A stretch of 64,000 nucleotides of DNA from an uncultured Gammaproteobacteria bacterium (GTDB lineage: Bacteria > Pseudomonadota > Gammaproteobacteria > Poriferisulfidales > GCA-002705445): contig CAJYAP010000001.1 in assembly GCA_913065025.1 (NCBI GenBank), positions 49,545-113,544 of the forward strand, in the 5' to 3' direction. The translations under genes were made by a program, and so were the position numbers. The notes under the pieces are model-generated. The model searched no databases, was not told the origin of the DNA, and was given only the letters and a program-made list of their open reading frames with translations. Positions 6,154 through 59,128 of the stretch are shown in pieces. The stretch's first letter is position 1. Every line of letters starts with the position of its first letter.

Positions 6154-7036
6154 TAAGTCTTTCATTAAATGGCTATATTTTTCTTTATTAGTGATTATGT
6201 TTGGAAGTGCATTTTTATTGATCGAGTTATCATTAAAATCGTTTTCTCCATCGATAATAGCATTGTCTAGAGTATCTATAGCCGCATTGGTATTATTTTT
6301 ATATTCAATGCTTAAAGGTTATTCTTACGGTTTTGTTAAAGATCATTTTATACTATTGTTCATATTGGGGTTATCAGGAACAACCATACCTTTTTATCTT
6401 ATAAGCTGGGCTCAAATGACAATTAATAGTAGTGAAACCGGTATATTAATAGGTTTTATGCCCATTTTTACAATTATTGGTTCTCATTATTTTTTTAAAT
6501 ATGAGCAATTAACAGCAAATAAAGTTTTCGGTTTTATTTTAGGGTTTATTGGTTTGTTTGTACTATTAATAAATAATGAAAATTCTATAAATTTTGAGGA
6601 TAATATTATTGCAAAAATTGCTGTTATATTCGCCGCTTTTTTCTATGCACTAAATGCTTTATTGGTGAAAAAAATTAAAAATATTAAAGTTATTCCTCTA
6701 TCAGCGATTGTAATGATTTTTTCTTCACTGCAATTGTTATTTTTTGTATTAGTAACCTACAATAATAATACATATACAGAAGTAATTTATATTGATTCTT
6801 TAATTGCTCTATTGTTTATGGCTATATTTTCAACAGCTATAGCAACAGTAATTTATTATAAAATTATACATGATTATGGGCCTAATTTTTTAAGCTTAGT
6901 AAACTATCCAATTCCAATATATGCTTTTTTTTCAGGTGTAATTTTTTTAGATGAAAATATTAATATATACTCAATTATTTCTCTAGTGTTAGTCGTTATA
7001 GCTATATACATATCTCAAAAAAATAAGATTAATTAA
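6143..7036 (+). CDS. DMT-superfamily (EamA-like) transporter, about 10 TM helices
   Basis: 297 aa, highly hydrophobic with two internal repeats typical of EamA/RhaT transporters. Overlaps the pgpA stop by 11 nt. Confidence 0.6.
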   Translation: MLFNKSFIKWLYFSLLVIMFGSAFLLIELSLKSFSPSIIALSRVSIAALVLFLYSMLKGYSYGFVKDHFILLFILGLSGTTIPFYLISWAQMTINSSETGILIGFMPIFTIIGSHYFFKYEQLTANKVFGFILGFIGLFVLLINNENSINFEDNIIAKIAVIFAAFFYALNALLVKKIKNIKVIPLSAIVMIFSSLQLLFFVLVTYNNNTYTEVIYIDSLIALLFMAIFSTAIATVIYYKIIHDYGPNFLSLVNYPIPIYAFFSGVIFLDENINIYSIISLVLVVIAIYISQKNKIN

Positions 7037-7691
7037 GTTTTATAAACAGACTAAAATTTTTATTTGTAGCATTTATTGTTAATTTTTTTTCTTTACTGAT
7101 ATGAGCCATTCCATTATAAATTCCATCTGATATTCCACATGAAGCTATTTCAATATTAATACCATATATTTTCTTATTAAGATTAATTAGCTCTCCATAA
7201 TAATTACAATTATTGCTGTCCTTGCCATAAATTTTAAAGTTTTTTATTAAAAAATTATGTTTTACCTGACTCTCGTAAGATTCCCAGTTTTTATTTATTA
7301 TATCACTTGCATCTAATATTTCGTTATCACTGTATTTTACCAAATATATATTCCCATAATCTTTTGCTGGTTCTGTAATCCATTTCCCGCTCATAATATT
7401 TTCGTTAATAATTTTTCCTTTGATTTCAGCAGTTCCAAATTTGCTACCATCCCTAAGATACATAGATAAATTCCACTTAAAATTATCTTCTTTAATATTA
7501 AATTTCCCTTCATATACAACTTTAGCTTTTTCAGTATATGCAGTTGCTATTTTGCCTGATACTAGTCCTGTAAAATCATATTTTCCATGACCATTAATAT
7601 CAAATATGCCTGACCATACCCCATCAAACGATATTGCTTGAGTTGAAAATATTAACATACCTATAATTTTTAAAATTTTTATTCCTGTCAT
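7029..7691 (-). CDS. Hypothetical secreted protein (signal peptide, no recognisable domain)
   Basis: 220 aa. N-terminal MTGIKILKIIGMLIFSTQAIS looks like a Sec signal peptide. No motif I recognise. Lies between the transporter and tRNA-Ala. Confidence 0.4.
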   Translation of the reverse strand: MTGIKILKIIGMLIFSTQAISFDGVWSGIFDINGHGKYDFTGLVSGKIATAYTEKAKVVYEGKFNIKEDNFKWNLSMYLRDGSKFGTAEIKGKIINENIMSGKWITEPAKDYGNIYLVKYSDNEILDASDIINKNWESYESQVKHNFLIKNFKIYGKDSNNCNYYGELINLNKKIYGINIEIASCGISDGIYNGMAHISKEKKLTINATNKNFSLFIKLN

Positions 7692-7746: not shown

Positions 7747-7774
7747 TTGACATAGGGTTGCTTTAGCCTAATAT
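7747..7774 (+). promoter_or_regulatory. Near-consensus sigma70 promoter for tRNA-Ala (TTGACA-N16-TAATAT)
   Basis: TTGACA at 7747-7752, 16-nt spacer, TAATAT at 7769-7774. The predicted start site is about 7 nt downstream, just 5' of the tRNA at 7785. Confidence 0.5.
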
Positions 7775-7784
7775 GCAAAAAATA

Positions 7785-7857
7785 GGGGCTATAGCTCAGT
7801 TGGTAGAGCATTTGCATGGCATGCAAAGGGTCGGCGGTTCGAATCCGCCTAGCTCCA
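7785..7857 (+). tRNA. tRNA-Ala (anticodon GGC)
   Basis: Cloverleaf: acceptor GGGGCTA/TAGCTCC with the G3:U70 Ala identity pair; D arm GCTC-AGTTGGTAGAGC; anticodon stem TTTGC/GCAAA with loop ATGGCAT (anticodon GGC); T arm GGCGG-TTCGAAT-CCGCC; discriminator A. The 3' CCA is not encoded. Confidence 0.9.
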
Positions 7858-7874
7858 CAATTTATTTATTAAAC

Positions 7875-8885
7875 ATGAATATAGCTGATAAATTTTCGAG
7901 AAAATTAAGAGATGTTAGGATATCTGTTACAGACAGATGTAACTTTAGGTGTACTTACTGTATGCCCAAAGAAGTATATGATGTAAATTATAAATTTTTT
8001 AAAAAAACAGAGATTCTCAGCTTCGAGGAAATAATAAGACTGGTAAAAATTCTTGCTTCTCTTGGTGTTAAGAAAGTTCGATTAACTGGCGGAGAACCAT
8101 TATTAAGAAAAAACATTCATGTGTTAGTAAAACATATTAAAGAAATCAAAGGTATTACAGATATCAGCATGACTACTAATGGTGTTCTGCTTTCAGAAAA
8201 AAAAGCTTTGCTGCTAAAAGAGTCCGGATTGAACAGATTAACAATTAGCTTAGATTCTATAGACCCCATAAGATTTCAAGAAATAAGTGGCACTAACTAT
8301 CATCCAAACGATGTTTTGTCAGGCATACATAATGCAAAAAAAGTGGGCTTTGAAAATATAAAAATTAATATGGTGGTAAAAAAAGACATTAATCATGAGG
8401 ATATATTACCGATGTTAGATAAATTTAGTGACACTGGTTGCATAGTTAGATTTATTGAATTTATGGATGTTGGTAATGTTAACTTCTGGGAAAAAAAAGA
8501 TGTTATTTCACTGAAAGAAATTTTAAGTATTATTTCTAATAAATATCATGTTAAATCATTAGAAAAAAACTATAGTAGTGAAGTTGCAAAAAGATGGTCT
8601 TATAGTGGTGGAGAATTTGGAATTATAAGCTCTATATCTAATCCTTTTTGCGGAGACTGCTCAAGAATTAGGCTTACTGCTGAGGGTAAACTTTTTACAT
8701 GTTTATTTGCAGATAAATCACATGATATAAAAAAATTAGTGAGATCCTCTGAATCAGATGAAATTATTAAGAACTATTTAATTAATATGTGGAAAGTGAG
8801 GGATGATAAATATTCTGAAACAAGAATGTCTCAAAATGGATTACAAAATATTAAAAAAGCAGAAATGTCTTATATCGGCGGTTAA
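7875..8885 (+). CDS. moaA: GTP 3',8-cyclase MoaA (radical SAM)
   Basis: Radical-SAM CNFRCTYC cluster motif and a C-terminal second Fe-S cysteine triad (CGDCSRIRL...C). Start set at ATG 7875 (MNIADKF). The ORF from 7773 reads through the tRNA and is rejected. Confidence 0.9.
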   Translation: MNIADKFSRKLRDVRISVTDRCNFRCTYCMPKEVYDVNYKFFKKTEILSFEEIIRLVKILASLGVKKVRLTGGEPLLRKNIHVLVKHIKEIKGITDISMTTNGVLLSEKKALLLKESGLNRLTISLDSIDPIRFQEISGTNYHPNDVLSGIHNAKKVGFENIKINMVVKKDINHEDILPMLDKFSDTGCIVRFIEFMDVGNVNFWEKKDVISLKEILSIISNKYHVKSLEKNYSSEVAKRWSYSGGEFGIISSISNPFCGDCSRIRLTAEGKLFTCLFADKSHDIKKLVRSSESDEIIKNYLINMWKVRDDKYSETRMSQNGLQNIKKAEMSYIGG

Positions 8886-9391
8886 TCTTTAAGTCTAGGC
8901 ATTAATTCTACTAAATTACATGGCTTATGTTCTGAATCAAGCTGATATTGAATAATATCTAACCACGCATCCTTGCAAGCACCAGGAGATCCAGGTAAGC
9001 AAAATATATATGTTGAGTTTGCTACTCCAGCAATAGCCCTTGACTGTATTGTCGAAGTTTTAATTTTTTTATATGAAAGACTTCTAAATATTTCACCAAA
9101 ACCATCAATTCGTTTATCTAGAAGAACTTCTACAGCTTCAGGAGTACCGTCAGTACCAGTTACGCCAGTACCTCCTGTTGTAATTACAACGTTAATTTTT
9201 TCTGTATCAATCCAAGATGAAACAATGCTCCTAATTGAGTAGATATTATCTTTAACAATTGCATGTTCAATTGCAGTATGCTCAGCTTCCTCTACTAGTT
9301 CGCAAAGGAGATTACCAGATTTATCTGTTTCTTTCGTTCTAGAGTCAGATATTGTTAAAATAGCTATATTTAGTTTAATTTTTTCATTCAT
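8882..9391 (-). CDS. moaB: Molybdenum cofactor biosynthesis protein B (MogA/MoaB family)
   Basis: 169 aa. GGTG-xT-xDxTPEA motif (ITTGGTGVTGTDGTPEAV) typical of MoaB/MogA. Convergent with moaA, with a 4-nt overlap. Confidence 0.8.
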   Translation of the reverse strand: MNEKIKLNIAILTISDSRTKETDKSGNLLCELVEEAEHTAIEHAIVKDNIYSIRSIVSSWIDTEKINVVITTGGTGVTGTDGTPEAVEVLLDKRIDGFGEIFRSLSYKKIKTSTIQSRAIAGVANSTYIFCLPGSPGACKDAWLDIIQYQLDSEHKPCNLVELMPRLKD

Positions 9392-9450
9392 TAAGTGATA
9401 ATATTATTTATTAATGAAATATACAATAAACAATACTATCTATATAAAAT

Positions 9451-9888
9451 ATGAATTTAGTAGCATTATTATCAAAAAATATTAACCCATATGAGTTGAT
9501 AAGAAGTTATGAATCTAAGAACTGTGATTTAAGTTTATCAGGCGCTCAGAGCTTATTTATTGGGTATATGAGGAAAACTAATGATAAAAGAGATGATATA
9601 TCATCAATGACTTTAGAATTTTATCCTGAAATGACCCAAGGCTATCTTGATAATTTAGCTAAAATAGTAAAAGAAAAGAATAATTTGGATAACGTTTTGA
9701 TAGTTCATAGAATTGGTAATGTTAAGATTGGTGATTGTCTTGTGATAGTTGCATGTTGGTCAAAACATAGAAAAGAATGTATTGACGGTGTTAAATATAT
9801 ATTAGAAGATTTAAAACATAATGCTCCATTCTGGAAGAAGGAATATTATTCTGATGAAAGTTCAAAATGGGTTGAAAAAAATACTTAA
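9451..9888 (+). CDS. moaE: Molybdopterin synthase catalytic subunit MoaE
   Basis: 145 aa. Conserved MoaE segments (GAQSLFIGYMR, LIVHRIGNVKIGDCLVIVACWSKHRKE, APFWKKE). Confidence 0.85.
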   Translation: MNLVALLSKNINPYELIRSYESKNCDLSLSGAQSLFIGYMRKTNDKRDDISSMTLEFYPEMTQGYLDNLAKIVKEKNNLDNVLIVHRIGNVKIGDCLVIVACWSKHRKECIDGVKYILEDLKHNAPFWKKEYYSDESSKWVEKNT

Positions 9889-11135
9889 ATATAGTTTTTA
9901 AATTTTATGATCTTTACCACATCATTTTTATTGGACTTTCCCTTTTCCACAGGTAGATAAATTAAGCAATTGGCGTTATTCATTGAGCTGAGTATTCCAG
10001 ATCCTTGCTCACCAACAGTTTTGACAAAATACTTATTATTTTTCATTGTGTATATTCCTCTCTGTAGTTCAGCTCTTCCTTGTCTTTTCTTGAGATTTGA
10101 TAAAAGTATTGCTTCATCTGTAACAAGCTCGTAACTCTTTCCAGCTAGTAAATATATAGTGGGTAGGACAAATAAGAGGAATGTAATCATAACTGAAACA
10201 GGGTTTCCAGGAAGTCCAAAAAAAATAGTATCTTTTATTTTTCCAAAAGCTAAAGGCCTTCCTGGTTTCACAGCAACTTTCCAAAAATTTATATTACCTA
10301 GAGATTTAACAACATCTTTTATATAGTCTGCATCACCGACAGAAACACCTCCGGTAGATATTACAATATCTGATTTTTTTACAGCTATCTTAAATTTATC
10401 TTTTATATCTCTTATATTGTCTTTTGCATGACCCAAATCAATAACATCTATATTATGTTTTGCAAGCATTCCAGTTAATGTGAATCTATTGCTATCATGA
10501 ACTTTTCCGTATGGAAGTTTTTTATCTACAGGAACAACTTCATCCCCAGATGTAAAGAAGGAAACTTTTATTTTTTTAAAAACTTTTACTTTACTAATAC
10601 CTTGAGATGCTAGAAGACCCATCGATGACGAATTAATAATATGAAATTTTTTAATCAAAACTTTGTTAGGTTTAATATCTTCGCCTGCAAATCTAATATT
10701 TTGATATATTTTTACATTTTTAGAATTTATAATTATATTATCATTATTTAATTTACTAATTTCTTCCTTCATTATTACAATATTGCAGTCTTTAGGTAGA
10801 ACAGCACCAGTCATAATTTTCACACATTCATTTTTCTTGATTTTTCCCTTAAAAGGGGAGCCAGCTAAAGATATTCCAATAATTTTTAGATTTTTATTAT
10901 TTGCTAAGCTTTGGATATTCAATGCATAACCATCCATTGCAGAATTATCATAATTAGGTACTTTTAATTTAGATTTTATATTTTCAAACACAGTTCTGTC
11001 ATGAGAATCAATTAAATTAACATATTCGTAAGTGCTAATTTTTTTAGTTAATTTTTTAATTTTTGCAAGAGCATCCTCAATTAATATTGAATTTGGATCA
11101 TAGTCATCCATGCAGCTATATATTTTTTTCTTCAT
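9885..11135 (-). CDS. moeA: Molybdopterin molybdenumtransferase MoeA
   Basis: MoeA N-terminal and MoCF-biosynthesis domains (SAMDGYAL, ISTGGVSVGDADY, GLPGNPVS). Start set at ATG 11135 (MKKKIYSCMDDYD), which abuts the upstream Smr gene; the 11183 start would overlap it. Confidence 0.85.
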   Translation of the reverse strand: MKKKIYSCMDDYDPNSILIEDALAKIKKLTKKISTYEYVNLIDSHDRTVFENIKSKLKVPNYDNSAMDGYALNIQSLANNKNLKIIGISLAGSPFKGKIKKNECVKIMTGAVLPKDCNIVIMKEEISKLNNDNIIINSKNVKIYQNIRFAGEDIKPNKVLIKKFHIINSSSMGLLASQGISKVKVFKKIKVSFFTSGDEVVPVDKKLPYGKVHDSNRFTLTGMLAKHNIDVIDLGHAKDNIRDIKDKFKIAVKKSDIVISTGGVSVGDADYIKDVVKSLGNINFWKVAVKPGRPLAFGKIKDTIFFGLPGNPVSVMITFLLFVLPTIYLLAGKSYELVTDEAILLSNLKKRQGRAELQRGIYTMKNNKYFVKTVGEQGSGILSSMNNANCLIYLPVEKGKSNKNDVVKIIKFKNYI

Positions 11136-11136
11136 G

Positions 11137-11490
11137 TTAATTAATATTTTTAAGTTGGATATAAACAGCTCCTGTGCCACCATCTCTCTGCTGAGCTGAA
11201 TGATAAGCTAATATATTTGGATTGTATTGTAAATACTGATCTACAAAATTTTTGAGCTTTGGACCCTCAACTCCAGAGCCGTAACCTTTACCATGTATAA
11301 TAATGCCTACTAAATTCCCTTCCATCTGCAGTTTTGGCAGCCATATATCTAAAAAATTTTCTGCTTCAATTAGATTTTTCCCATGTAAGTCAATTTCAAA
11401 GGCTATTTCAAGCTCACCTTTTTTTAATCTTTGAAACCTTTTTCTTTGGAATCCTGGTTTGCAATTTCCAATTATATTATTTTCAACCAT
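11137..11490 (-). CDS. Smr-domain protein (small MutS-related domain)
   Basis: 117 aa. Smr signature LDLHG...HGKG (EIDLHGKNLIEAENFL ... IIHGKGYGSG) in the C-terminal half. Confidence 0.6.
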   Translation of the reverse strand: MVENNIIGNCKPGFQRKRFQRLKKGELEIAFEIDLHGKNLIEAENFLDIWLPKLQMEGNLVGIIIHGKGYGSGVEGPKLKNFVDQYLQYNPNILAYHSAQQRDGGTGAVYIQLKNIN

Positions 11491-29839: not shown

Positions 29840-30658
29840 ATGAACCTAGTTAATGGAAAATCTAGCTCAAGTATTTCAATATTTGATAGAGGTTTTCTTT
29901 ATGGTGATAGCATATTTGAAACAATACTAGTAATTAATAAAAAACCTAATAACTTAAATCTTCATCTGAAGAGAATAAAATCAGGCTGTTTATCATTAAA
30001 GATAAAAAATTTAAATTATAGCTTACTCTCAAAATACATCAATAAAGCATTAATTAATGAAAAAAATTGCGTACTAAATATTAACATTACCAGAGGAACA
30101 GCTAAAAAAAGAGGTTATAATATTAAATTCTGTCCACTTAGGCCTAATATTATTTTAACAACAAGTAAAATACCAAAATTTCCAGCTTCATACAAAACAA
30201 ATGGAATAAAAACAAAATTCTCGAGCATGAAGCTAAGTAATAGTCCTAATTTATCAAAAATAAAACATTCGAATAGACTTGAGCAAATAATAGCAACAAA
30301 TGAAATAACAAAAAATTTTCCAGAACTAATACTATGTGATCAAAAAAATTACATAATAGAAGGTATATCAAGTAATATATTTTTTATTAAAAAAAATATT
30401 TTTTATACTCCTATGATTCATGAGAGTGGAGTTGATGGTGTAATGAAATCACTGATAATTAAAATTCTTAAAAAAAATAATTATCAAGTTTTAGAAAAAG
30501 AAATTAAGAAAGAAGAGGTAAAAAATTATGACGGAGCCTTTTTTTGTAATTCTGTTCGCTTGATTTGGAATATTAAATCTATAGAAAAACTAAAATATAA
30601 AGAAAATAAATTTATAAAAAATATTATAGAGTTAGTTAATAATGAAATATATAAATAA
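29840..30658 (+). CDS. pabC: Aminodeoxychorismate lyase (fold-type IV PLP enzyme)
   Basis: 272 aa, fold-type IV. In the conserved position after fabF and before mltG, as E. coli pabC. Confidence 0.7.
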   Translation: MNLVNGKSSSSISIFDRGFLYGDSIFETILVINKKPNNLNLHLKRIKSGCLSLKIKNLNYSLLSKYINKALINEKNCVLNINITRGTAKKRGYNIKFCPLRPNIILTTSKIPKFPASYKTNGIKTKFSSMKLSNSPNLSKIKHSNRLEQIIATNEITKNFPELILCDQKNYIIEGISSNIFFIKKNIFYTPMIHESGVDGVMKSLIIKILKKNNYQVLEKEIKKEEVKNYDGAFFCNSVRLIWNIKSIEKLKYKENKFIKNIIELVNNEIYK

Positions 30659-31640: not shown

Positions 31641-32273
31641 ATGAAAAAAGGAAAATTAATAAGTTTTGAGGGAATTGAAGGAGTAGGAAAAACAACTACG
31701 ATAAAATCCATAAAGCTATTTTTAGAAGAAAAGGGTATTCAGGTTTACTGCACACGCGAACCTGGCGGAACAAAATATGGTGAGTCTTTGAGAAGTGTTT
31801 TACTTAATAATAAATCAATTATATCGCCTGAAGCAGAACTTTTACTTATGTTTTCGATAAGAAATCAGCATATCGAAGAAATTATAAAACCAAAATTATC
31901 TGATGGTATATGGGTGTTGTGTGATAGATTTATTGATGCATCAATTGCATACCAAGGATATGGAAAGAAAGTTAGTATAAAAAAAATTAAATTATTAATT
32001 AATAACTTTACGGAAAACATTATACCAGATATAACTATATTCTTTGACCTTCCATATGATTTAGCAAAAGAAAGATTCCCTAAGAATAAAAAAAAAGATA
32101 GATTTGAAAATTTAAATAGCATGTTTTTTGATAATGTTTATAAAGGCTATTTAAAACAAGCTAACGAGAATAAGAAAAGAATAAAAATAATCAATGCGAA
32201 TTGTGATAAAAAAGAAGTCAATAATCAAATCATTTTAGAATTAAATAAAGCTTTTAAAGAGATAAAACTATAA
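31641..32273 (+). CDS. tmk: Thymidylate kinase
   Basis: P-loop ISFEGIEGVGKTT, DRF motif and LID region. 210 aa. Confidence 0.9.
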   Translation: MKKGKLISFEGIEGVGKTTTIKSIKLFLEEKGIQVYCTREPGGTKYGESLRSVLLNNKSIISPEAELLLMFSIRNQHIEEIIKPKLSDGIWVLCDRFIDASIAYQGYGKKVSIKKIKLLINNFTENIIPDITIFFDLPYDLAKERFPKNKKKDRFENLNSMFFDNVYKGYLKQANENKKRIKIINANCDKKEVNNQIILELNKAFKEIKL

Positions 32274-32939
32274 ATTACTATATAATATTTTTTTTTCGAG
32301 AATTGCAGTCAGTAAAACAACCTCATTGAAGCCATTTTTTTTTGCTTCTATAATATCTGATGTGCATCCAATACCACCTGATATTATTATCTCAGCGTTT
32401 GGGAATAGTTCCTTTGCGTAGTTAGCGTTTTCTTTATTAATACCATTTTTCATGCCAATATTATCTAAATTCATTGATATAACTTTCTTTGGAGTTAAAT
32501 ATTTGTAATTATTATTTTTTTTAATTAACTTTTTGTTTTTAAAATCTAATGAGAGTATTAAGTTTGAATATCTTTTGTTCACTAGATCTATATAATCCTC
32601 ATAAGTCTCGGTAGCTACAACCTGTATATAATTAGTATTTTTATATCGATTTAATTGACTGTATTTTCTAACCCCGTTATCTATAATAAAATTAATATTA
32701 GGAAATTTGGCCAATATTTTATCTATTAAACTACACTCACTTTTAAAATTCACAATAGAATCTAAATCTGCTAAATATATTGTGTTAAAATGATGAATCG
32801 AGAGTAGATATTGTATGAATGCTAATGGATCAGAACTTGGTGATAGTTTTTTTGAAATTTCACTATAATTACGCTTTTTTCCTTGCATAGCAGTAACCAC
32901 TTTATTATTTTTTAGATCTATAGCTGGTATTAACTTCAT
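32268..32939 (-). CDS. HisA/HisF-like (beta/alpha)8-barrel protein, archaeal COG1411 type (MfnB / 'orf19'-like)
   Basis: 223 aa. Starts MKLIPAIDLKNNKVV, the HisA-type N-terminal phosphate-binding motif, and ends with a glycine-rich ISGGIG segment. The rest of his biosynthesis is absent here. Its 3' end overlaps the tmk stop, and its start is 6 bp from the divergent ATP-grasp start. Confidence 0.55.
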   Translation of the reverse strand: MKLIPAIDLKNNKVVTAMQGKKRNYSEISKKLSPSSDPLAFIQYLLSIHHFNTIYLADLDSIVNFKSECSLIDKILAKFPNINFIIDNGVRKYSQLNRYKNTNYIQVVATETYEDYIDLVNKRYSNLILSLDFKNKKLIKKNNNYKYLTPKKVISMNLDNIGMKNGINKENANYAKELFPNAEIIISGGIGCTSDIIEAKKNGFNEVVLLTAILEKKILYSNL

Positions 32940-32945
32940 AAAATT

Positions 32946-33926
32946 ATGGATATATTAATTTACGAACATATTTTAGGAGGTGGTTGTAATGAAAACCCTT
33001 CCCCTGCAATACTAAATGAGGCAAAACTCATTGTTAGATCATTAGTAGATGATTTAACAAGAGAATATCCTGACTCCAAGATATCACTATTAACAAATAA
33101 AAAAAATAAAAATATATTAAGTAACATAAGTCTAGTTTTTATAGATCACTCAGCAAGTTTAATATTTAATATTGTTTCAAATATAAAAAAAAACGATAAG
33201 GTTTTAATCTTAGCTCCTGAAGAAAATGAAATTATGTACAAGATTGTTAAGGATCTCGAGTCAGAAAAAATTAGTTTAATCAATTGCTCCAGTGATTTTA
33301 TTTATAAAACAACATACAAAGTATTAACAAATAATAACTTAATAAATTCTAATAAATATATTATTAAAATTTATAGCAGCTATAAAAATATTGATAAAAA
33401 TCAAAGTATAGTTGCAAAATCTAATGATGGTCTTGGCGCTGAAAAATTATTTATCTTTAAAAATAGAGAGGATCTTGAGAATAATGAGAAAAAATTACTA
33501 GAAAAACATATTTTTCAAGAATATATAATTGGTGATGTTGTTGGTATAAATATTATCTCAAGTTTTGATAAAATTAATATTCTTTCAGTAAACAAGCAAG
33601 TTTATAAAAAAAATTCTAAAAATGAAATTTTTCTTGAAAAAATTATTTTTGGTGAATTTAATAACATGATAGATATATTTAAAATTTTTGTAAGAAATAT
33701 ATTAGGTAATTTTAGTGGTTTTTATGGATTTATAGGTATTGATGCTATTATAACAAATGATAAGAAAATATTATTTCTTGAAATAAATCCTAGGCTTACT
33801 ACTTCATATATAGGTCTTCATAAAACTTTAGGATTTAACCCTATAAAACTACTTTATAAACAAGATTATAATTATGATGTTAAAGACAATAAAGTTTTTT
33901 CGGTAGATATTACAAATGACAAGTAA
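32946..33926 (+). CDS. ATP-grasp ligase (COG1821-like; MfnD / 'orf21'-like)
   Basis: 326 aa. C-terminal ATP-grasp signature ...ILFLEINPRLT... and an upstream glycine-rich loop (GFYGFIGIDAI). Confidence 0.6.
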   Translation: MDILIYEHILGGGCNENPSPAILNEAKLIVRSLVDDLTREYPDSKISLLTNKKNKNILSNISLVFIDHSASLIFNIVSNIKKNDKVLILAPEENEIMYKIVKDLESEKISLINCSSDFIYKTTYKVLTNNNLINSNKYIIKIYSSYKNIDKNQSIVAKSNDGLGAEKLFIFKNREDLENNEKKLLEKHIFQEYIIGDVVGINIISSFDKINILSVNKQVYKKNSKNEIFLEKIIFGEFNNMIDIFKIFVRNILGNFSGFYGFIGIDAIITNDKKILFLEINPRLTTSYIGLHKTLGFNPIKLLYKQDYNYDVKDNKVFSVDITNDK

Positions 33927-34950
33927 AATTTTCTTAGGTTGGGATATTGGAGGGGCAAACACAAAAGTTTGTGTATTCGAAGAAAACTTTAACATAATCG
34001 ATATGCATGTTAAGAATATTACGATATGGAGTAATTTTTATAATCTAAATAATTTTTTCAAATATATTTCTTCATTGTATAGTTCATATGATATTTATAA
34101 TTATATTACAATAACTGCAGAATCATGTGATAACTTTAAAAGTAGACATGCTGGAGTAAATCAAATTTTAAATAACTGTGATTTTTATATTTCTGGAAAA
34201 AAATATTATTATACAAATGATAATTTATACATAAAATACGATGAAGCAACTGCTAATCCAGAACGTCTATATTCAACAAATTGGATGCTTACTTCACATT
34301 ACTTAAATAATTTAAATGAAATAAATTTAATTATTGATATGGGGTCAACAACAACCGATTTTATTTATAAAAATATGAGTATAAAAGATAATATAAATGA
34401 TTATAGTAGGTTACTCAATAACACGTTGTTATATGCAGGAGTTGTTAGAACGCCACTAGCAATGATTTCTGAGAAAATAGAATTTTCTTCTTGCACAATA
34501 CCTTTAATTAAAGAAGTATTCGCAACTACTGGTGATATATTTAATATTACTAATGATATAGATTTTAGTAAATTAGATTACAGCGGTGCAGATAATTTGG
34601 ATTATACAAGAAATAACTCATTTATAAGATTATCAAGATCAATCGGGCTTGACTATGATAAAAAAAATGAACAAAAACTAATTCACCTTTGCGAGTCTTT
34701 TAAAAAAATACTAATGAGTTTAGTATTAAATAATATACGTCTTCTTTACAATGACAATTTAGATGAAATTTCACTTGCTTCAGTCGGCGAAGGAAGATTT
34801 TTAGTTGAAGATTTGGCAATTATAAATAGTATAAAATACAAAGATATAGAAAAAGAAAACTTTTTTTCAATAAAAAATGTAGATGATAAACTTGTTTATA
34901 AAAATTTAACTTCAGCTCTAGTTGTTATGAATTATTTTAAAATTAAATAA
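33916..34950 (+). CDS. ASKHA-fold hydantoinase-like protein ('H4MPT-linked C1 transfer pathway protein' family; MfnF / 'orf22'-like)
   Basis: 344 aa. N-terminal LGWDIGGANTKV is the ASKHA/hydantoinase-A phosphate-1 motif, and a second ...IIDMGSTTTD... motif follows. Overlaps the ATP-grasp stop by 11 nt. Confidence 0.55.
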   Translation: MTSKIFLGWDIGGANTKVCVFEENFNIIDMHVKNITIWSNFYNLNNFFKYISSLYSSYDIYNYITITAESCDNFKSRHAGVNQILNNCDFYISGKKYYYTNDNLYIKYDEATANPERLYSTNWMLTSHYLNNLNEINLIIDMGSTTTDFIYKNMSIKDNINDYSRLLNNTLLYAGVVRTPLAMISEKIEFSSCTIPLIKEVFATTGDIFNITNDIDFSKLDYSGADNLDYTRNNSFIRLSRSIGLDYDKKNEQKLIHLCESFKKILMSLVLNNIRLLYNDNLDEISLASVGEGRFLVEDLAIINSIKYKDIEKENFFSIKNVDDKLVYKNLTSALVVMNYFKIK

Positions 34951-34955
34951 CTAAT

Positions 34956-36296
34956 ATGAATAAGATTAAAATACAATATTATAAAAATTCATGTATATAT
35001 GGTGAGTTTATAAAAAAAAATAATTGGTTTATTTATTTAGACAGTTGTAACGATATTGGATCTTTTGGAACCTACGATATATTATCTTGCAATCCATATA
35101 TAAAAATGACAAGTAATGGTAATTTTATAAATATAGAAAACAATGGCGTTAAATCTTCATTTTACGATAATCCTTTTGATGTTATAAAAAAATACTATAA
35201 ACAAAATAATATTAATTCTGAGTTTCCATTTAGCTCAGGAATGATTGGATACTTTGGCTATGATGCACTAAAAACAAGTAAATCTGAAAATCAGGATTTT
35301 CCTGATATCGCAGTCGGTTTTTATGATTGGGCTATTGTTGTAGATCATAATAAAAAAGAAACATATGTTGTATATAAAAAAATTAATACTTTTATCGATA
35401 AAATAGTAGACTATTTTAGTATAAGAAATACTTTTGCAGATAAAAAAACAAAATATAAGTTTTTCAATTTTCATCAAAATACCTCTAAAAGTAATTATAT
35501 TAAAGATGTATTGCTAATTAAAAAATATATTAGTGATGGGGACTGTTATCAGGTAAACTATTCTCAGAATTTTTCTGCAAAGTATGATGGTGATCCATGG
35601 GATATTTATAAAGATATAAGAAAATTAAATCCAGCCCCGTATTCCTCTTTTTTTAGTTTTGACAATAAGTATATTATTAGTTCATCTCCAGAAAGATTTA
35701 TTTCTATTAATAATAATTGCGTTCAAACAAAACCAATAAAAGGAACTCTCAAAAGATTACCGGACCCAAAAGAAGATTTTAGCCAAATTGATATTCTTAA
35801 AAACGATGAAAAAAATTTAGCTGAGAATCTTATGATTGTTGATTTATTGCGAAATGATTTAAGTAAATGTTGTATGCTAGGAACTGTTAAAGTGAGCAAA
35901 TTATTTGAGATTGAAAGTTACGCATCAGTTCATCATATGGTGAGCACTATTGAAGGTAAGCTCGAAAAAAACAATACTTCTATCGATATACTTGAAGCTT
36001 GTTTTCCTGGTGGATCAATTACTGGGGCACCAAAAAAACGTTCTATGGAAATAATTGACGAATTAGAAAATCGCAATAGAGGGGTTTATTGCGGATCAAT
36101 AGGATATTTTGATGAAAATAATAATATGGACACCAATATATGTATAAGAACTATTATGTTAACTAAAAATACTATAAATTTTGCCGCAGGAGGCGGAATA
36201 GTCCATGATTCTAACCCGGAGGATGAATATTATGAAAGCTTAGAAAAAGTTTCTATATTTATTAAATATTTTTCTAATGGGGATTTTAAATGGTAG
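34956..36296 (+). CDS. pabB: Aminodeoxychorismate synthase component I (chorismate-binding enzyme)
   Basis: 446 aa. Chorismate-binding domain motifs SPERF, PIKGTLKR (a lysine here is the PabB hallmark; TrpE has alanine), GAPK and CGSIGYF. Lies 5 nt downstream of the ASKHA gene. Confidence 0.75.
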   Translation: MNKIKIQYYKNSCIYGEFIKKNNWFIYLDSCNDIGSFGTYDILSCNPYIKMTSNGNFINIENNGVKSSFYDNPFDVIKKYYKQNNINSEFPFSSGMIGYFGYDALKTSKSENQDFPDIAVGFYDWAIVVDHNKKETYVVYKKINTFIDKIVDYFSIRNTFADKKTKYKFFNFHQNTSKSNYIKDVLLIKKYISDGDCYQVNYSQNFSAKYDGDPWDIYKDIRKLNPAPYSSFFSFDNKYIISSSPERFISINNNCVQTKPIKGTLKRLPDPKEDFSQIDILKNDEKNLAENLMIVDLLRNDLSKCCMLGTVKVSKLFEIESYASVHHMVSTIEGKLEKNNTSIDILEACFPGGSITGAPKKRSMEIIDELENRNRGVYCGSIGYFDENNNMDTNICIRTIMLTKNTINFAAGGGIVHDSNPEDEYYESLEKVSIFIKYFSNGDFKW

Positions 36297-36889
36297 TTGT
36301 TAAGATTGGAGGTAGCCTGCAATCAACAAAATATATTCGGTATTGGATTAAAGCAGTAAAGTTAAATAGAAATACAAGCTTCTTATTAGTTTTTGGTGGA
36401 GGAAAGTATGCTGATGAAATAAGACGACAGCAAAAAATAAAACTATATAGCGATTACGAAGCTCATAAAAATGCTGTTAATGCTATGAAAAGTTTCACAA
36501 AAGATTACTCAAATGAGCTTAAAGATTTTTTATATATTAAGTCAGTTGATAGCATTAAAAAAAACTACAAAAAAAGAAAGCTTTTAACATGGCTGCCATC
36601 TGTTAATGAGGTTGGTAAACTCAATATACCTTTAGATTGGAATGCTACATCAGATTCTATTGCTCTAGCAATCGCAAAAAAAACAAACTCACCATTAATT
36701 ATTGTGAAGTCTTTGAAATTTAATTCAAAAAAATATATGAATAGTTTTTTCTTAAAAGACCAAATTTTGGATAAATATTTTTCTGATAATTATAAACTTC
36801 ATGATCAGAAGATATCAATAACTTCAAGAGATAAATTTTATAAGCTTAAAAAAATTTGTAAAGATTTTTCAAGAAATATTAATTGTTAA
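36290..36889 (+). CDS. Amino-acid-kinase-fold small kinase (COG1608-like; MfnE / 'orf20'-like)
   Basis: 199 aa. N-terminal VVKIGGS plus second glycine motif LLVFGGGKYAD, typical of the carbamate/amino-acid kinase and isopentenyl-phosphate-kinase fold. Overlaps the pabB stop by 7 nt. Confidence 0.5.
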   Translation: MVVVKIGGSLQSTKYIRYWIKAVKLNRNTSFLLVFGGGKYADEIRRQQKIKLYSDYEAHKNAVNAMKSFTKDYSNELKDFLYIKSVDSIKKNYKKRKLLTWLPSVNEVGKLNIPLDWNATSDSIALAIAKKTNSPLIIVKSLKFNSKKYMNSFFLKDQILDKYFSDNYKLHDQKISITSRDKFYKLKKICKDFSRNINC

Positions 36890-42094: not shown

Positions 42095-42790
42095 TCAGTT
42101 TTTTGGTGATAAAAACTCTCTATATAAATAACCAATTAATGATGTGCTAAGTATTGTGAAAAATATTTGAAGAAATATTGAAATTAATAAAAAAACTTCT
42201 TTAAACTCATAAAATTCTGAATAATAGGAAATAGCTATATTTATTAGCAAATACGGGATTACGATTAAAATATAAAAAAAATAAATTTTCAAAGATTTTC
42301 CTCTTGTTAAATTATACGAATCTTTAAGATTTTTTTTTATATTACAAGCTGCCGCTGGAAGTATAAACATAATTCTTGAATAAATATAAATCATGTATAT
42401 AAGAAACGCATATAAATATAATGTTATTTTTGATATTTCTTCAGGAAAAAAAGGAGATAATATTATAATGTGTAATATATAGATACCAATAACGCTTGCT
42501 AGTAAATAAAATATTCTGTTCAAAAAAAGCTTTGTATAATTATTATTTAATATTTCAAAATAATTATTACCTATTCCTTTATCTAAAATAATATTTCTAA
42601 AAATATTTACAACTACTGGCGCTGAAATAATTAAATAACCAATAAAAAAAAGTAGTACCAAAAAAACATTTTGAGCGAGCATAACTAGAAATTGACTTAG
42701 TATTAGATATACGAGTAATGGAGTATAATTTTTCCATGATATTTTTATAAAATAAAAAGTATATAAAAGTGATTTTAAAACTATTCTCAT
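42095..42790 (-). CDS. Hypothetical polytopic membrane protein
   Basis: 231 aa with about 6 TM helices and no recognisable motif. Overlaps the start of the upstream dehydrogenase gene by 4 nt, so probably the same operon. Confidence 0.35.
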   Translation of the reverse strand: MRIVLKSLLYTFYFIKISWKNYTPLLVYLILSQFLVMLAQNVFLVLLFFIGYLIISAPVVVNIFRNIILDKGIGNNYFEILNNNYTKLFLNRIFYLLASVIGIYILHIIILSPFFPEEISKITLYLYAFLIYMIYIYSRIMFILPAAACNIKKNLKDSYNLTRGKSLKIYFFYILIVIPYLLINIAISYYSEFYEFKEVFLLISIFLQIFFTILSTSLIGYLYREFLSPKN

Positions 42791-48760: not shown

Positions 48761-49747
48761 TTAGCTTACTCCTTTAATAATTTTTATTTCAGAGTTATCA
48801 TTTATTATAAGTTTTTTATCTTCCATTTCTTTTCTCAGTACCGCTAAGCATAAATAATTTTCATCATTAACTTTTGATATGTTTATTATATCTCCAGCAT
48901 CTTTATTATTATCAGCACTAATAACTTTATCAGAGTAGCTAAAGTTTTCTTTTGATGCAATTTTTAATACATACAGTGATTTTTTTGATTCACCTAAATA
49001 GTGTGTTCTTGCAACAATTTCTTGCCCTGGATAACATCCTTTAGTGAAAGAAACCCCGTCAAGTAAATCAAGAGAGATCATTTGCGGAGTGTATGCTTCT
49101 ATTTTTGATTCTTGTAAAAATGGTATATGGTTTTCTATATCAAGGTAATCCCAAGAACCGTAACCCAATAAATTAGAGTTATTGACATCTATTATCGAAT
49201 TAATATCTTCATTATTAGTTAATATAATGGTCTGATTGGGTGAAATCTTAAATAATATAGAGTTGTTTATTTTTTTAGCTTCATTTCTATCCAGCGTTAT
49301 GTTTTCTGCAAAATTAATTTTAGTATTGCTAGATACCCCTATCAAAACATCATTTATGATTTCAAACTCTACTTTAGACATCATTTTGTACATGTTGAGT
49401 TTTTTTAATAATGGCTGAACAGTATCTAAAGAGGTATATAAGTAATATTCTTTATCTAGTTGAAATATATAGAATATTGATATTAGTCTTCCCTTTGGAT
49501 TACAGTACCCTGACAAAATACCAGTATTATTTTTTAACTCTTTAATGTCATTTGTAAATTGTGTATTTAGAAAATTTTGTGTATCTTCACCTTTGCATTT
49601 TACCAGTACTTTGTTGTTAAGTAATGATACAGATTGCTGATTTATAACTTTTTCAATATCTTTTTTAAAAATATTGTTATATTTTAAACCATAATTATCT
49701 ATAACAGCATCATTGGTAATGAATTTTTTAAAGAAATCGTTTATCAT
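48761..49747 (-). CDS. ygfZ: Folate-binding tRNA-modifying protein YgfZ (GcvT-like fold)
   Basis: 328 aa with the family-defining KGCYPGQE motif near the C-terminus. Divergent from the sdh operon. Confidence 0.75.
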   Translation of the reverse strand: MINDFFKKFITNDAVIDNYGLKYNNIFKKDIEKVINQQSVSLLNNKVLVKCKGEDTQNFLNTQFTNDIKELKNNTGILSGYCNPKGRLISIFYIFQLDKEYYLYTSLDTVQPLLKKLNMYKMMSKVEFEIINDVLIGVSSNTKINFAENITLDRNEAKKINNSILFKISPNQTIILTNNEDINSIIDVNNSNLLGYGSWDYLDIENHIPFLQESKIEAYTPQMISLDLLDGVSFTKGCYPGQEIVARTHYLGESKKSLYVLKIASKENFSYSDKVISADNNKDAGDIINISKVNDENYLCLAVLRKEMEDKKLIINDNSEIKIIKGVS

Positions 49748-56892: not shown

Positions 56893-57426
56893 TTATTTAT
56901 TCATATTTAGGTAATTAATTATAAAAGTTGCAATGTCAGACGGATTATTAATATCTAGCTTAGTTAAATTACGTTTAACCTCGATATTCGTATCAGTGGC
57001 TACTGCGATTATATTATTATCTTTATTACTCAATAAACCCCTATTTTTGCCTATTTCTTCTCTATATAATTCAATTTTAGGAAAATTCTCTGCTTTAAAG
57101 CCCTCTACAAGGGTAATATCACTTTCTATTTTATCAAGAATATTTAACAGATCATTTAAACTTAACTCATCGTTACTATGATTTTCATGCATTAATGCCC
57201 ATCTATTTGACGACGATATAAGCATATTTTCAGCACCAGACTTTCTAATTTCATAACTATCTTTACCAGGCTCGTCAACATCAAAATTATGATGTGCGTG
57301 CTTTATCACCGAAACTCTATAGTTTGATTTTTTTAAGATACCTACAATCTCTTTTATAAGTGTAGTTTTTCCAGTTCCACTATAAGCCGCAAAACCAATT
57401 AATTTTTTATTTTGAATTGTACTCAT
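56893..57426 (-). CDS. mobB: Molybdopterin-guanine dinucleotide biosynthesis adapter protein MobB
   Basis: 177 aa. P-loop IGFAAYSGTGKTTLI. Overlaps and follows mobA. Confidence 0.75.
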   Translation of the reverse strand: MSTIQNKKLIGFAAYSGTGKTTLIKEIVGILKKSNYRVSVIKHAHHNFDVDEPGKDSYEIRKSGAENMLISSSNRWALMHENHSNDELSLNDLLNILDKIESDITLVEGFKAENFPKIELYREEIGKNRGLLSNKDNNIIAVATDTNIEVKRNLTKLDINNPSDIATFIINYLNMNK

Positions 57427-57991
57427 TAAGTTGTTCTGTAGTATTTATATTATCAAAGTAGGTCGAGTTTTCATTAAAAAAGATATACTGATGGTTATTA
57501 TTTTGGTACCAAATATCAATTTTTCTATCTCCATTTGCAAGATAATCGTGAAGTGATTTAACTTTTTCTTTGGATACTAACATAAATACAGGCTGCGATC
57601 TCAAACCGTTATGTGCAATATAAACATCTTTGCTTTTATCAGCTTCATCAATCATTTTTTGGATAACCTTCCAGGAAAAATTTGGGCAATCACACGGTAA
57701 AGTAATTAAGTAATCTGTTTTGATCATTTTCAATAAACTATATATACCAGCTAAAGGGCCTTGAAAATTATCTAAACTATCTTTAATAACAGGATAATTG
57801 TATGACTTATATTTATCTATATTTCTATTTGCATTAATTATTATATTTGATGTTTTTGCTGCAATTTTTTCTAAGAGATTTTCAATTAAAGGAGTTCCAT
57901 TTACAAGCACAAGACCTTTATCTTGATTATTCATTCGTGTAGCTTTACCACCAGCTAAAATACCAACTGATATATCATTTATTGTTAACAT
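57407..57991 (-). CDS. mobA: Molybdenum cofactor guanylyltransferase MobA
   Basis: 194 aa. N-terminal ILAGGKATRM (GTP-binding LAGG.S.RMG-like) and a PCD.P motif (LPCDCPNF). Confidence 0.75.
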   Translation of the reverse strand: MLTINDISVGILAGGKATRMNNQDKGLVLVNGTPLIENLLEKIAAKTSNIIINANRNIDKYKSYNYPVIKDSLDNFQGPLAGIYSLLKMIKTDYLITLPCDCPNFSWKVIQKMIDEADKSKDVYIAHNGLRSQPVFMLVSKEKVKSLHDYLANGDRKIDIWYQNNNHQYIFFNENSTYFDNINTTEQLNEYNSK

Positions 57992-58066
57992 AAAACACCT
58001 CTGTAGAATTGCAAAATATTACCTTATAATAGATATGCTTTAATAAAATTATGGAGTAAAGTTATT

Positions 58067-58366
58067 ATGAATGATAGCAATAAAAATCTTACAATGGAAA
58101 TTCAGTCAGAAGTTTTTGAAATGCTAATAAAGCATTTGCAAAATAAAACAGAAGTTCAGAATATAGATTTGATGAACCTAGCTGATTTTTGTAGAAATTG
58201 TTTATCAAAATGGTATGTCTCTGCCGCTAAAGAAAAAGGTATTGACGTATCTTACGATGATGCAAGAGAAATTGTTTATGGCATGCCGTACAGTGAATGG
58301 AAGAATTTATACCAGAAAGAAGCAACAAAAGAACAGCTAGATAAATTTAACTCTAGAAATAAATAA
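58067..58366 (+). CDS. DUF1244-family small protein (CxxC)
   Basis: 99 aa with ...LADFCRNCLSKWY... matching the conserved DUF1244 core. Its stop abuts the moeB start with zero spacing. Confidence 0.5.
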   Translation: MNDSNKNLTMEIQSEVFEMLIKHLQNKTEVQNIDLMNLADFCRNCLSKWYVSAAKEKGIDVSYDDAREIVYGMPYSEWKNLYQKEATKEQLDKFNSRNK

Positions 58367-59128
58367 ATGCAATTTACACATCTTGATGACAAAGACCTTC
58401 TTTTTTATTCAAGACATATTCTATTGCCCAATATTGGAATAGAAGGACAGCAAAAGCTAAATTTGGCTGAAGTTACTATTTTTGGTTTAGGTGGTTTAGG
58501 TAATTTACTTTCTATCTATATAGCTTCCTCTGGTATTAAGAAAATAAATTTAGTAGATTTTGATGTTGTAGAAGAAACAAATTTACAAAGGCAAATAACT
58601 TTCACTTCTAAAGATTTTGGTACATTAAAAGTTGATGTTATTGAAAAATTTTTAAAAGAAAAATATCCAGATATTATTATCAAGAAATACCCTAAGAAAA
58701 TTACAAAATGCATTCAAGTAGAATCAATAATAGAAAACTCAGATATAGTACTAGACGGAACAGATAATTTTGTAGTTAGAAAAATAATTAATAAAGCATG
58801 TTTAATAAAAAATAAAAAACTTATTATAGGAGCAGTGGAAGGTTATTCAGGTCAACTTATGACAGTAATACCAGATAAAAGTGCATGCTATGAATGTGTT
58901 TATGAGAATTTAATTGATAACAACTCATGTTCAGATACAGGAGTTCTAGCTCCTTTAGTTGGAATGATAAGCTCAATGATGGCTATTGAATGCATAAATA
59001 TAATTACTGGCAACAAGTCTTCATATGAAAATAAATTATTAATTATTAACGGGTTAAATGTATCAGTTGATATAATGAGTACAAAAAGAAACAAAGCTTG
59101 TGAAACAAGCTGTATAAAAATTAAATGA
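58367..59128 (+). CDS. moeB: Molybdopterin-synthase adenylyltransferase (MoeB/ThiF family E1-like)
   Basis: 253 aa. Nucleotide-binding GLGGLGN and CxxC...CxxC zinc motifs (CYEC ... C.D.G). Confidence 0.8.
   Translation: MQFTHLDDKDLLFYSRHILLPNIGIEGQQKLNLAEVTIFGLGGLGNLLSIYIASSGIKKINLVDFDVVEETNLQRQITFTSKDFGTLKVDVIEKFLKEKYPDIIIKKYPKKITKCIQVESIIENSDIVLDGTDNFVVRKIINKACLIKNKKLIIGAVEGYSGQLMTVIPDKSACYECVYENLIDNNSCSDTGVLAPLVGMISSMMAIECINIITGNKSSYENKLLIINGLNVSVDIMSTKRNKACETSCIKIK

Follow-up and report, generated by a model that had tools for sequence, protein, structure and literature searches.

The enzymes MfnA-F of Methanocaldococcus jannaschii make up the archaeal methanofuran core pathway. Methylofuran is a one-carbon carrier that works together with tetrahydromethanopterin. 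The archaeal product is methanofuran, while the bacterial product is methylofuran, which carries a polyglutamate side chain (PMC8141765). In M. extorquens, Orf22, Orf21 and Orf9 are the homologues of MfnB, MfnE and MfnF, respectively (Hemmann et al. 2021, PMC8141765). Orf17 of the same organism is a PF00977 protein of the HisA/HisF family, homologous to MJ0703 and of unknown reaction, and is treated as a different protein from MfnB; orf17 is essential for methylofuran, but the orf17 mutant still makes dephosphotetrahydromethanopterin (dH4MPT) (Hemmann et al. 2021, PMC8141765). The gene mfnD has been equated with orf1 (Chistoserdova 2016, PMC5020050), and orf1 of M. flagellatus is mfnD. Here, a window of 64,000 nt from an uncultured gammaproteobacterium (assembly GCA_913065025.1, contig CAJYAP010000001.1, 49,545–113,544, forward strand) was analysed. 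Directly after tmk it contains a module of five genes. This module is likely to be the orf17|mfnD-mfnF-pabB-mfnE subcluster of the bacterial tetrahydromethanopterin (H4MPT)/methylofuran islands, which would serve an Fhc/H4MPT pathway encoded elsewhere and would have been displaced by an inversion.

Profile matches were judged against the curated equivalog cut-offs of NCBIfam and the cut-offs of Pfam. The MfnD-like protein matched PF02655 ATP-grasp_3 with 73 bits (cut-off 23). Its top NCBIfam match was NF040722 MfnD_Meth, which covered the full length with 75.6 bits (cut-off 400); this model appears to have been trained mainly on methanogen sequences. Residues E92, K125, K158, N281 and R283 were invariant among 17 orthologues, and a related solved structure was PDB 3df7, an uncharacterised archaeal protein. 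In tblastn searches of the window, the ATP-grasp protein encoded next to orf17 in Azospirillum matched mfnD (E = 6e-21), while its paralogues OrfY/MyfA and Orf5 (MyfB) of Azospirillum had no match in the window; the MfnD-like protein is thus distinct from these two.

The best-scoring match of the MfnF-like protein was TIGR03123 ('H4MPT-linked C1 transfer pathway protein'), full length, with 203.2 bits, short of the cut-off (244.1). NF040623 MfnF scored 145.6 bits (cut-off 520), the Pfam match was weak only, and PDB 3c0b, an uncharacterised archaeal protein, was matched with E = 1e-28. The ASKHA motifs D10-x-G12-G13-x3-K17 and D141-x-G-S-T-T-x-D148 were invariant among 17 orthologues, including those embedded in H4MPT islands, and the gene stands in adjacency to mfnD and mfnE. 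The MfnE-like protein, encoded after mfnF and pabB, has the amino-acid-kinase fold (PF00696 AA_kinase, 30.5 bits, cut-off 24.9). Its top NCBIfam match was NF040622 MfnE (57.3 bits, cut-off 300), over residues 1–139 only, and it matched PDB 7qrh, also an uncharacterised archaeal protein, with E = 1e-9. K5, G7-G8-S9, G36-G37, H59, D122, K140 and D161, which include the KxGGS and GGG motifs, were invariant among 12 orthologues. PabB was identified by TIGR00553 with 381.3 bits, over the cut-off of 328.4. The motif residues were invariant between the window proteins and their island-embedded orthologues. The families proposed in a first-pass annotation of the window for the ATP-grasp, ASKHA and small kinase proteins, namely MfnD, MfnF and MfnE, were thus the top curated matches, with scores below the cut-offs, and the Pfam and NCBIfam matches agreed with its assignment of these genes to archaeal-type families linked to H4MPT and methanofuran. 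Judged by these matches, the three genes are putative bacterial orthologues of MfnD, MfnF and MfnE.

The gene divergent from mfnD encodes a PF00977 His_biosynth barrel (76.9 bits). Its top NCBIfam match was TIGR00734 hisAF_rel with 88 bits (cut-off 180); the HisA equivalog models gave 51–65 bits against cut-offs of 229–243, so the protein is nearer to TIGR00734 than to HisA/HisF. BLASTP analysis showed clear similarity to Azoarcus Orf17 (E = 4e-22). D8, D58, D87, E111, D132 and G188-G189 were invariant among 15 orthologues. No other his genes surround the locus, as had been pointed out before. The four genes other than pabB had been taken for orf19-orf22; the M. extorquens names that correspond to them are orf17, orf1, orf9 and orf21 (PMC8141765, PMC5020050). 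Islands in other genomes encode Orf17 plus a separate MfnB. The module is without a furan synthase.

The same gene order was found in other H4MPT islands. In plasmid pTs485 of Ca. Thiodictyon syntrophicum (NZ_CP020372.1, locus L021), the five genes directly follow mptG-mtdB-orfY-mch-orf5-orf7-fae. The order is repeated in the metagenomic islands L053, L102 and L077; in L053, fae-PTPS-orf17(-)-mfnD-mfnF-pabB-mfnE is contiguous. It also occurs, at about 30% identity, in L014 and L015, whose contigs carry families of the transaldolase and ribulose monophosphate pathway types (orotidine monophosphate decarboxylase-like, SIS) as well. In L014, L021, L053, L102 and L077, pabB occupies the same position as in the window. 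Azospirillum and Azoarcus have the orf17(-)|ATP-grasp|hydantoinase-like core within complete Fhc/H4MPT islands, and in Azoarcus this core is followed by the kinase gene and then mfnB. The module had been described as rearranged in the window; it is not, since pTs485 and several metagenomic islands have the identical order. A second AT-rich gammaproteobacterial group (L127 and L114, 29–31% G+C, labelled 'Gammaproteobacteria bacterium') carries orf17-mfnD-mfnF-pabB beside fae, with mfnB-DUF447 after pabB instead of mfnE; L127 has in addition a 461-aa open reading frame (ORF) where Azoarcus has DUF6513. The tail of the module therefore varies between lineages.

The five ORFs and the motifs quoted for them in the first-pass annotation were all found in the ORF list, at the positions given in Table 1. 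Upstream of the module lies fabD-fabG-acpP-fabF-pabC-mltG-tmk. Genes are packed extremely tightly here. The genes tmk and orf17 are convergent and share 6 nt at their 3' ends (32268–32273), and mfnE runs 11 nt into the AI-2E-family transporter gene, which is convergent with it (36879–36889). The start codons of the divergent orf17 and mfnD are 6 bp apart, and within mfnD, mfnF, pabB and mfnE neighbouring genes overlap or are 5 bp apart. With the 6-bp divergent gap and the convergent overlaps, promoters and terminators must fall within coding sequence.

Table 1. Genes of the module and its upstream neighbours, with positions in the window
Feature	Position	Strand	Remarks
pabC (aminodeoxychorismate lyase, Aminotran_4)	29840..30658	+	Pfam PF01063; usual pabC-mltG-tmk slot
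tmk (thymidylate kinase)	31641..32273	+	PF02223; left junction of the inferred inversion, usual holB slot
Orf17/MJ0703-type HisA/HisF-family TIM barrel	32268..32939	-	223 aa; MKLIPAIDLKNNKVV...ISGGIG; PF00977
Gap between the divergent orf17 and mfnD start codons	32940..32945	.	6 bases; from ORF coordinates
MfnD-like ATP-grasp ligase (orf1)	32946..33926	+	326 aa; ILFLEINPRLT; PF02655
MfnF-like ASKHA/hydantoinase-A-fold condensing enzyme (Orf9)	33916..34950	+	344 aa; GWDIGGANTK; TIGR03123
pabB (aminodeoxychorismate synthase component I)	34956..36296	+	446 aa; TIGR00553
MfnE-like small amino-acid-kinase-fold kinase (Orf21)	36290..36889	+	199 aa; VVKIGGS / FGGG; PF00696

All five genes were found full-length and in the same position in the relatives L011, L016 and L146, whose LeuS is 58–76% identical to that of the window, and the module genes were full-length even in relatives at 37–43% identity. 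The five genes are genuine and are not chance ORFs. PabC was 63–69% identical to those of L011 and L146. The window belongs to a marine metagenome contig of 179,842 bp (ERZ802847, NODE_2), and its proteins recur on many contigs from Tara, ENA and Logan. The G+C content of the module is 24–25%, compared with 25–31% for the flanks and a range of 25–36% in the window. The module is close to its flanks in this respect and so is not compositionally foreign; together with the same locus in divergent relatives, this bears out the earlier remark that it is as AT-rich as its surroundings and was not acquired recently.

A metagenome-assembled genome of a close relative, GCA_018675635.1, has the module at about 414–419 kb of contig JABGXU010000007.1 (590,524 bp), with synteny to the window from acn through holA. 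The synteny of 20 genes around the module is identical to that of the window; housekeeping proteins are 70–87% identical, PabB 66% and the module proteins 46–55%. On the same contig, at about 454–462 kb and on the opposite strand, lie holB, PTPS, fae, orf7, orf5, mch, orfY, mtdB and mptG. This island is without orf17, mfnD and mfnF of its own. The module and an H4MPT island thus occur together in the genome of one syntenic relative.

The MtdA/MtdB motif DxNAxPPxGIxG, back-translated with an AT bias, was used to scan a metagenome collection. MtdB homologues are encoded at each of the 120 loci returned. About 30 of them have a G+C content of 24–33%; most of these carry H4MPT island genes and, by their cluster names, most belong to other lineages. 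Among the AT-rich mtdB loci, only L051 and L141 belonged to the clade of the window. The L051 proteins were 97–100% identical to those of GCA_018675635.1, and PTPS, not orf17, follows fae there. L141, a Tara contig of 1.1 kb, encodes an MtdB 71% identical to that of GCA_018675635.1, and by eye its mtdB seems to be flanked by the end of mptG on one side and by the beginning of orfY on the other. The island is therefore present in at least one further member of the clade.

Other contigs were noted in the same scan. L040, L106, L115, L107 and L063 (24–27% G+C) and L139 and L049 (28%) are very AT-rich marine contigs with H4MPT/Fhc island genes; L106 covers fhcCDAB through mfnD. The Mch and Fae clusters of all these contigs are labelled 'Alphaproteobacteria' or 'Rickettsiales bacterium', and the contigs probably belong to the TMED127/Methylaequorales methylotrophs, which are described in PMC12542740. 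Identity comparison with alpha-, beta- and gammaproteobacterial references gave no taxonomic placement for the AT-rich islands. At L033 (141–1079) and L048 (2–649), MtdB homologues that share about 34% identity with the Azospirillum protein are encoded on AT-rich contigs, and no further island gene lies close by; judged by eye, the surrounding genes resemble those for an Lrp/AsnC-type regulator, a small GTPase, PhoU/PiT and gyrase, and these two loci might be of archaeal origin. In the window, molybdenum-cofactor genes were found at 7773–11183 (moaA, a MoCF_biosynth gene, moaE and moeA) and at 56893–59128 (mobB, mobA and a ThiF/MoeB-like gene). Their retention would fit a molybdenum or tungsten formate dehydrogenase downstream of Fhc; none was seen.

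The host genome has a G+C content of about 28%, and contigs of 1.10–1.14 Mb encode near-identical or related proteins. MltG of the window is only about 42–44% identical to those of Alteromonadales, a deep divergence from named Gammaproteobacteria. The host probably belongs to the GTDB order GCA-002705445, a sister order of SAR86 with low G+C that Illumina sequencing recovers too rarely. Genomes of 1.1 Mb with complete H4MPT gene sets are known from this order (PMC8371827 supplement). A host within SAR86 that uses the module as a folate bypass was considered and rejected: the module lies within bona fide H4MPT islands, the relative has the island, and the G+C content of SAR86 is 31–40%, against 28% here.

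Several results weigh against a methylofuran module that serves an H4MPT pathway in this species. The matches to the MfnD, MfnF, MfnE and hisAF_rel models all lie under the NCBIfam equivalog cut-offs, and no published assay of a bacterial MfnD, MfnE or MfnF was found. In tblastn searches with the island proteins of Azospirillum and of the close relative, neither the window nor the 10 kb on either side of it (84 kb in all) yielded fae, mtdB, mch, mptG, orfY, orf5, orf7, fhc, mfnB, PTPS or holB. The first-pass annotation had likewise seen no fae, mtd, mch, fhc or mptG in the window; its further expectation, that the C1 pathway is encoded elsewhere in the genome, was borne out in the syntenic relative by fae, mtdB, mch and mptG, with none of them in the 84 kb of the window species. 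The genes mfnA, mfnB, mfnC and fhcABCD were not located, the relative included, and no genome-wide test for fhcABCD or mfnB was made. In the window lineage, FAA-hydrolase-Dus-ABC_tran-ABC2 lies about 37 kb from the module, the same distance as in the relative, and is 77–85% identical; after FAA-hydrolase, however, the window lineage has amine oxidase and DUF1365 genes in place of the adh_short-YkuD-holB of the relative, so that synteny breaks just where the island would be expected. Finally, the membership of the window in order GCA-002705445 is circumstantial.

These results could also be explained if the species had lost the H4MPT/Fhc island and kept the five genes for another purpose or for pabB alone. 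The lack of any island gene within the 84 kb and the break in synteny right after FAA-hydrolase would fit such a loss, and loss of the entire pathway is known from planktonic relatives of other methylotrophs (PMC5020050). However, the four genes other than pabB are full-length and keep their motifs invariant at the LeuS divergence given above, which would be unexpected if they were of no use, given a genome size of about 1.1 Mb. In addition, the island is present in the syntenic relative, L141 holds a further mtdB, and complete H4MPT sets have been reported for two families of the probable order (PMC8371827 supplement). An orphan module is therefore considered unlikely, and an H4MPT island elsewhere in the genome of the window species is the expected partner of the module.

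Roles in methylofuran core biosynthesis were assigned by orthology to the M. jannaschii enzymes. Orf17 would act at an early step, and the furan precursor would come from MfnB and MfnC encoded elsewhere. MfnD, which in archaea is a tyramine–L-glutamate ligase, would join glutamate to tyramine to give gamma-glutamyl-tyramine. MfnE would phosphorylate [5-(aminomethyl)furan-3-yl]methyl phosphate (F1-P), the substrate of the archaeal kinase, and so form the diphosphate F1-PP, and MfnF would condense F1-PP with gamma-glutamyl-tyramine to APMF-Glu, the ether-linked core of methylofuran. PabB, together with PabC encoded four genes upstream of the module, would provide p-aminobenzoate (pABA) for H4MPT (via MptG) and for folate. 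The product of the pathway would serve Fhc/H4MPT formaldehyde oxidation encoded elsewhere in the genome. Among the methylofuran producers analysed by Hemmann et al. 2021 (PMC8141765), most of those with the tyramine type have a homologue of MfnD, and most of those with the tyrosine type lack one; the presence of this gene here suggests that the lineage makes tyramine-type methylofuran.

The position of pabB within the operon, which recurs in many gammaproteobacterial lineages, could alternatively point to pterin or pABA chemistry, with the MfnE-, MfnF- and MfnD-like proteins as analogues of FolK, FolP and FolC in the folate/H4MPT branch or in the synthesis of another pABA cofactor. The two routes would resemble each other formally in their chemistry: in both, a -CH2-O-PP group is made, an aromatic nucleophile is then condensed with it in an SN1-type reaction, and glutamate is ligated last. 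The module is also free of a furan synthase, as noted, and mutants in several archaeal-type genes reportedly lacked dH4MPT. FolK and FolP are predicted to be missing from many marine streamlined groups including SAR86 (2026 survey, PMC13408713), but the host is more likely to belong to the sister order of SAR86 than to SAR86. The best profile matches were to MfnD, MfnE and MfnF, not to Fol enzymes. In Azoarcus the kinase gene directly adjoins mfnB, and the orf17 mutant without methylofuran still made dH4MPT (Hemmann et al. 2021, PMC8141765). A role in pterin or pABA chemistry is thus improbable. Slightly less probable again is its narrower form, in which pabB is embedded because of shared chemistry and not just for co-regulation, and the Mfn-like enzymes of this streamlined lineage act on a pABA or pterin substrate, either as non-orthologous FolK/FolP/FolC-like enzymes or in an unknown pABA cofactor route; if it were true, some of the folate auxotrophy predicted in marine bacterioplankton would be an annotation artefact. 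The one-to-one assignment of the first-pass annotation, in which the HisA-like protein is the 4-HFC-P synthase MfnB and the module alone encodes MfnB, MfnD, MfnF and MfnE, had its sole support in both being TIM-barrel-type enzymes and can practically be dismissed: BLASTP detected no similarity to the bona fide Azoarcus MfnB (E = 25), against the clear matches to Orf17, PF00977 and TIGR00734, and the islands hold both proteins.

The position of the module in the window can be accounted for together with its origin from a methylofuran island. The usual gammaproteobacterial order, which we take from E. coli pabC-mltG-tmk-holB, is tmk-holB, and holB was found neither in the window nor in the 10 kb on either side. 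In GCA_018675635.1, holB lies directly after fae-PTPS, about 40 kb from the module, and the segment from orf17 to holB measures about 40.7 kb. Inverting this segment restores tmk-holB on one strand and the island order of L053 together. Both the position and the orientation of the module are therefore explained by one inversion that spans about 40 kb and breaks at tmk|holB and orf17|PTPS, and the order fae-PTPS-orf17(-)-mfnD-mfnF-pabB-mfnE of L053 is the state that this model needs before the inversion. The tmk|orf17 junction is common to the window, L011 and L146, so the inversion would be old. L016, which is the most divergent of the relatives, retains the module and the synteny downstream of it, and its contig ends within orf17. 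We infer that an ancestral inversion of about 40 kb swapped the module with holB. The module does take the slot after tmk where holB would be expected, and holB is absent there, as had been stated; it is no functional replacement, since the holB of the relative stands beside fae-PTPS. A single inversion would be enough to explain the odd place of the module.

A 373-aa PTPS-family gene (PF01242) was noted in GCA_018675635.1 (L148, 13426–15467) and in L053 (8370–9473). Single-domain PTPS/QueD proteins are typically shorter. The gene occupies the fae|orf17 interval in L053 and the fae|holB interval in the relative, and marks the breakpoint of the inversion. Its product may feed the pterin branch by bypassing FolB.

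Some other features of the window were recorded. A tRNA-Ala(GGC) was found at 7785–7858 (+) with 69.9 bits by Rfam and also by ARAGORN. It lies within the first 86 nt of the ORF 7773–8885, the 370-aa MoaA/radical-SAM ORF of public assemblies, whose start is therefore probably over-extended. The ORFs 7029–7691 (-), 42095–42790 (-) and 48761–49747 (-), of 220, 231 and 328 aa, are publicly called genes with no Pfam match recorded; the 231-aa ORF is kept in relatives at 51–61% identity. For the ORF 1087–2181, the public gene call uses another start and gives 357 aa. Positions 72–563 belong to glyA, of which only the 3' part lies inside the window.

The results place the genes of the methylofuran core in a lineage of marine Gammaproteobacteria that is abundant and uncultured and whose genome measures about 1.1 Mb, and by inference they place H4MPT-linked formaldehyde oxidation in the same lineage. 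Retention of the module supports C1 oxidation as a core trait kept despite extreme streamlining. The module also offers a compact, conserved gene context for the Orf17/MJ0703 protein that could be exploited for biochemistry.

Compared with the archaeal pathway of M. jannaschii, MfnD, MfnE and MfnF were the best curated matches of three window proteins; the scores were far under the equivalog cut-offs, and MfnA, MfnB and MfnC lie outside the module. The Orf17-type protein shares with HisA and HisF the (beta-alpha)8 family PF00977, the N-terminal Asp (D8), the second Asp (D132) and the C-terminal GG phosphate-binding motif. It differs from them in its sub-cut-off HisA scores, in the lack of his context and in its family, TIGR00734/Orf17, which is tied genetically to methylofuran rather than histidine.

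Close likeness was seen to the 'archaeal-like' H4MPT/methylofuran clusters of methylotrophic Proteobacteria, which have the same families (Orf17, MfnD/orf1, MfnF/Orf9 and MfnE/Orf21, plus pabB), the same divergent orf17|ATP-grasp-hydantoinase-like core and the same motif residues. The module proteins of the window are, however, only 22–26% identical to their Azospirillum counterparts. Unlike in these clusters, the window subcluster is parted from fae, mch, mtdB and mptG (by about 40 kb in the relative). Its neighbours are tmk and the AI-2E-family transporter gene, and the genome is a streamlined marine one with about 28% G+C. The five genes have the same order and orientation in pTs485, L053, L102 and L077, where the module abuts fae, whereas in the window lineage it abuts tmk; in L053, PTPS stands between fae and orf17, in agreement with the breakpoint in the relative. 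The module thus represents a system already known, namely the methylofuran branch of bacterial H4MPT islands, in a new host, and not a new type of system; the proposed inversion that split the island and displaced holB is one small new detail.

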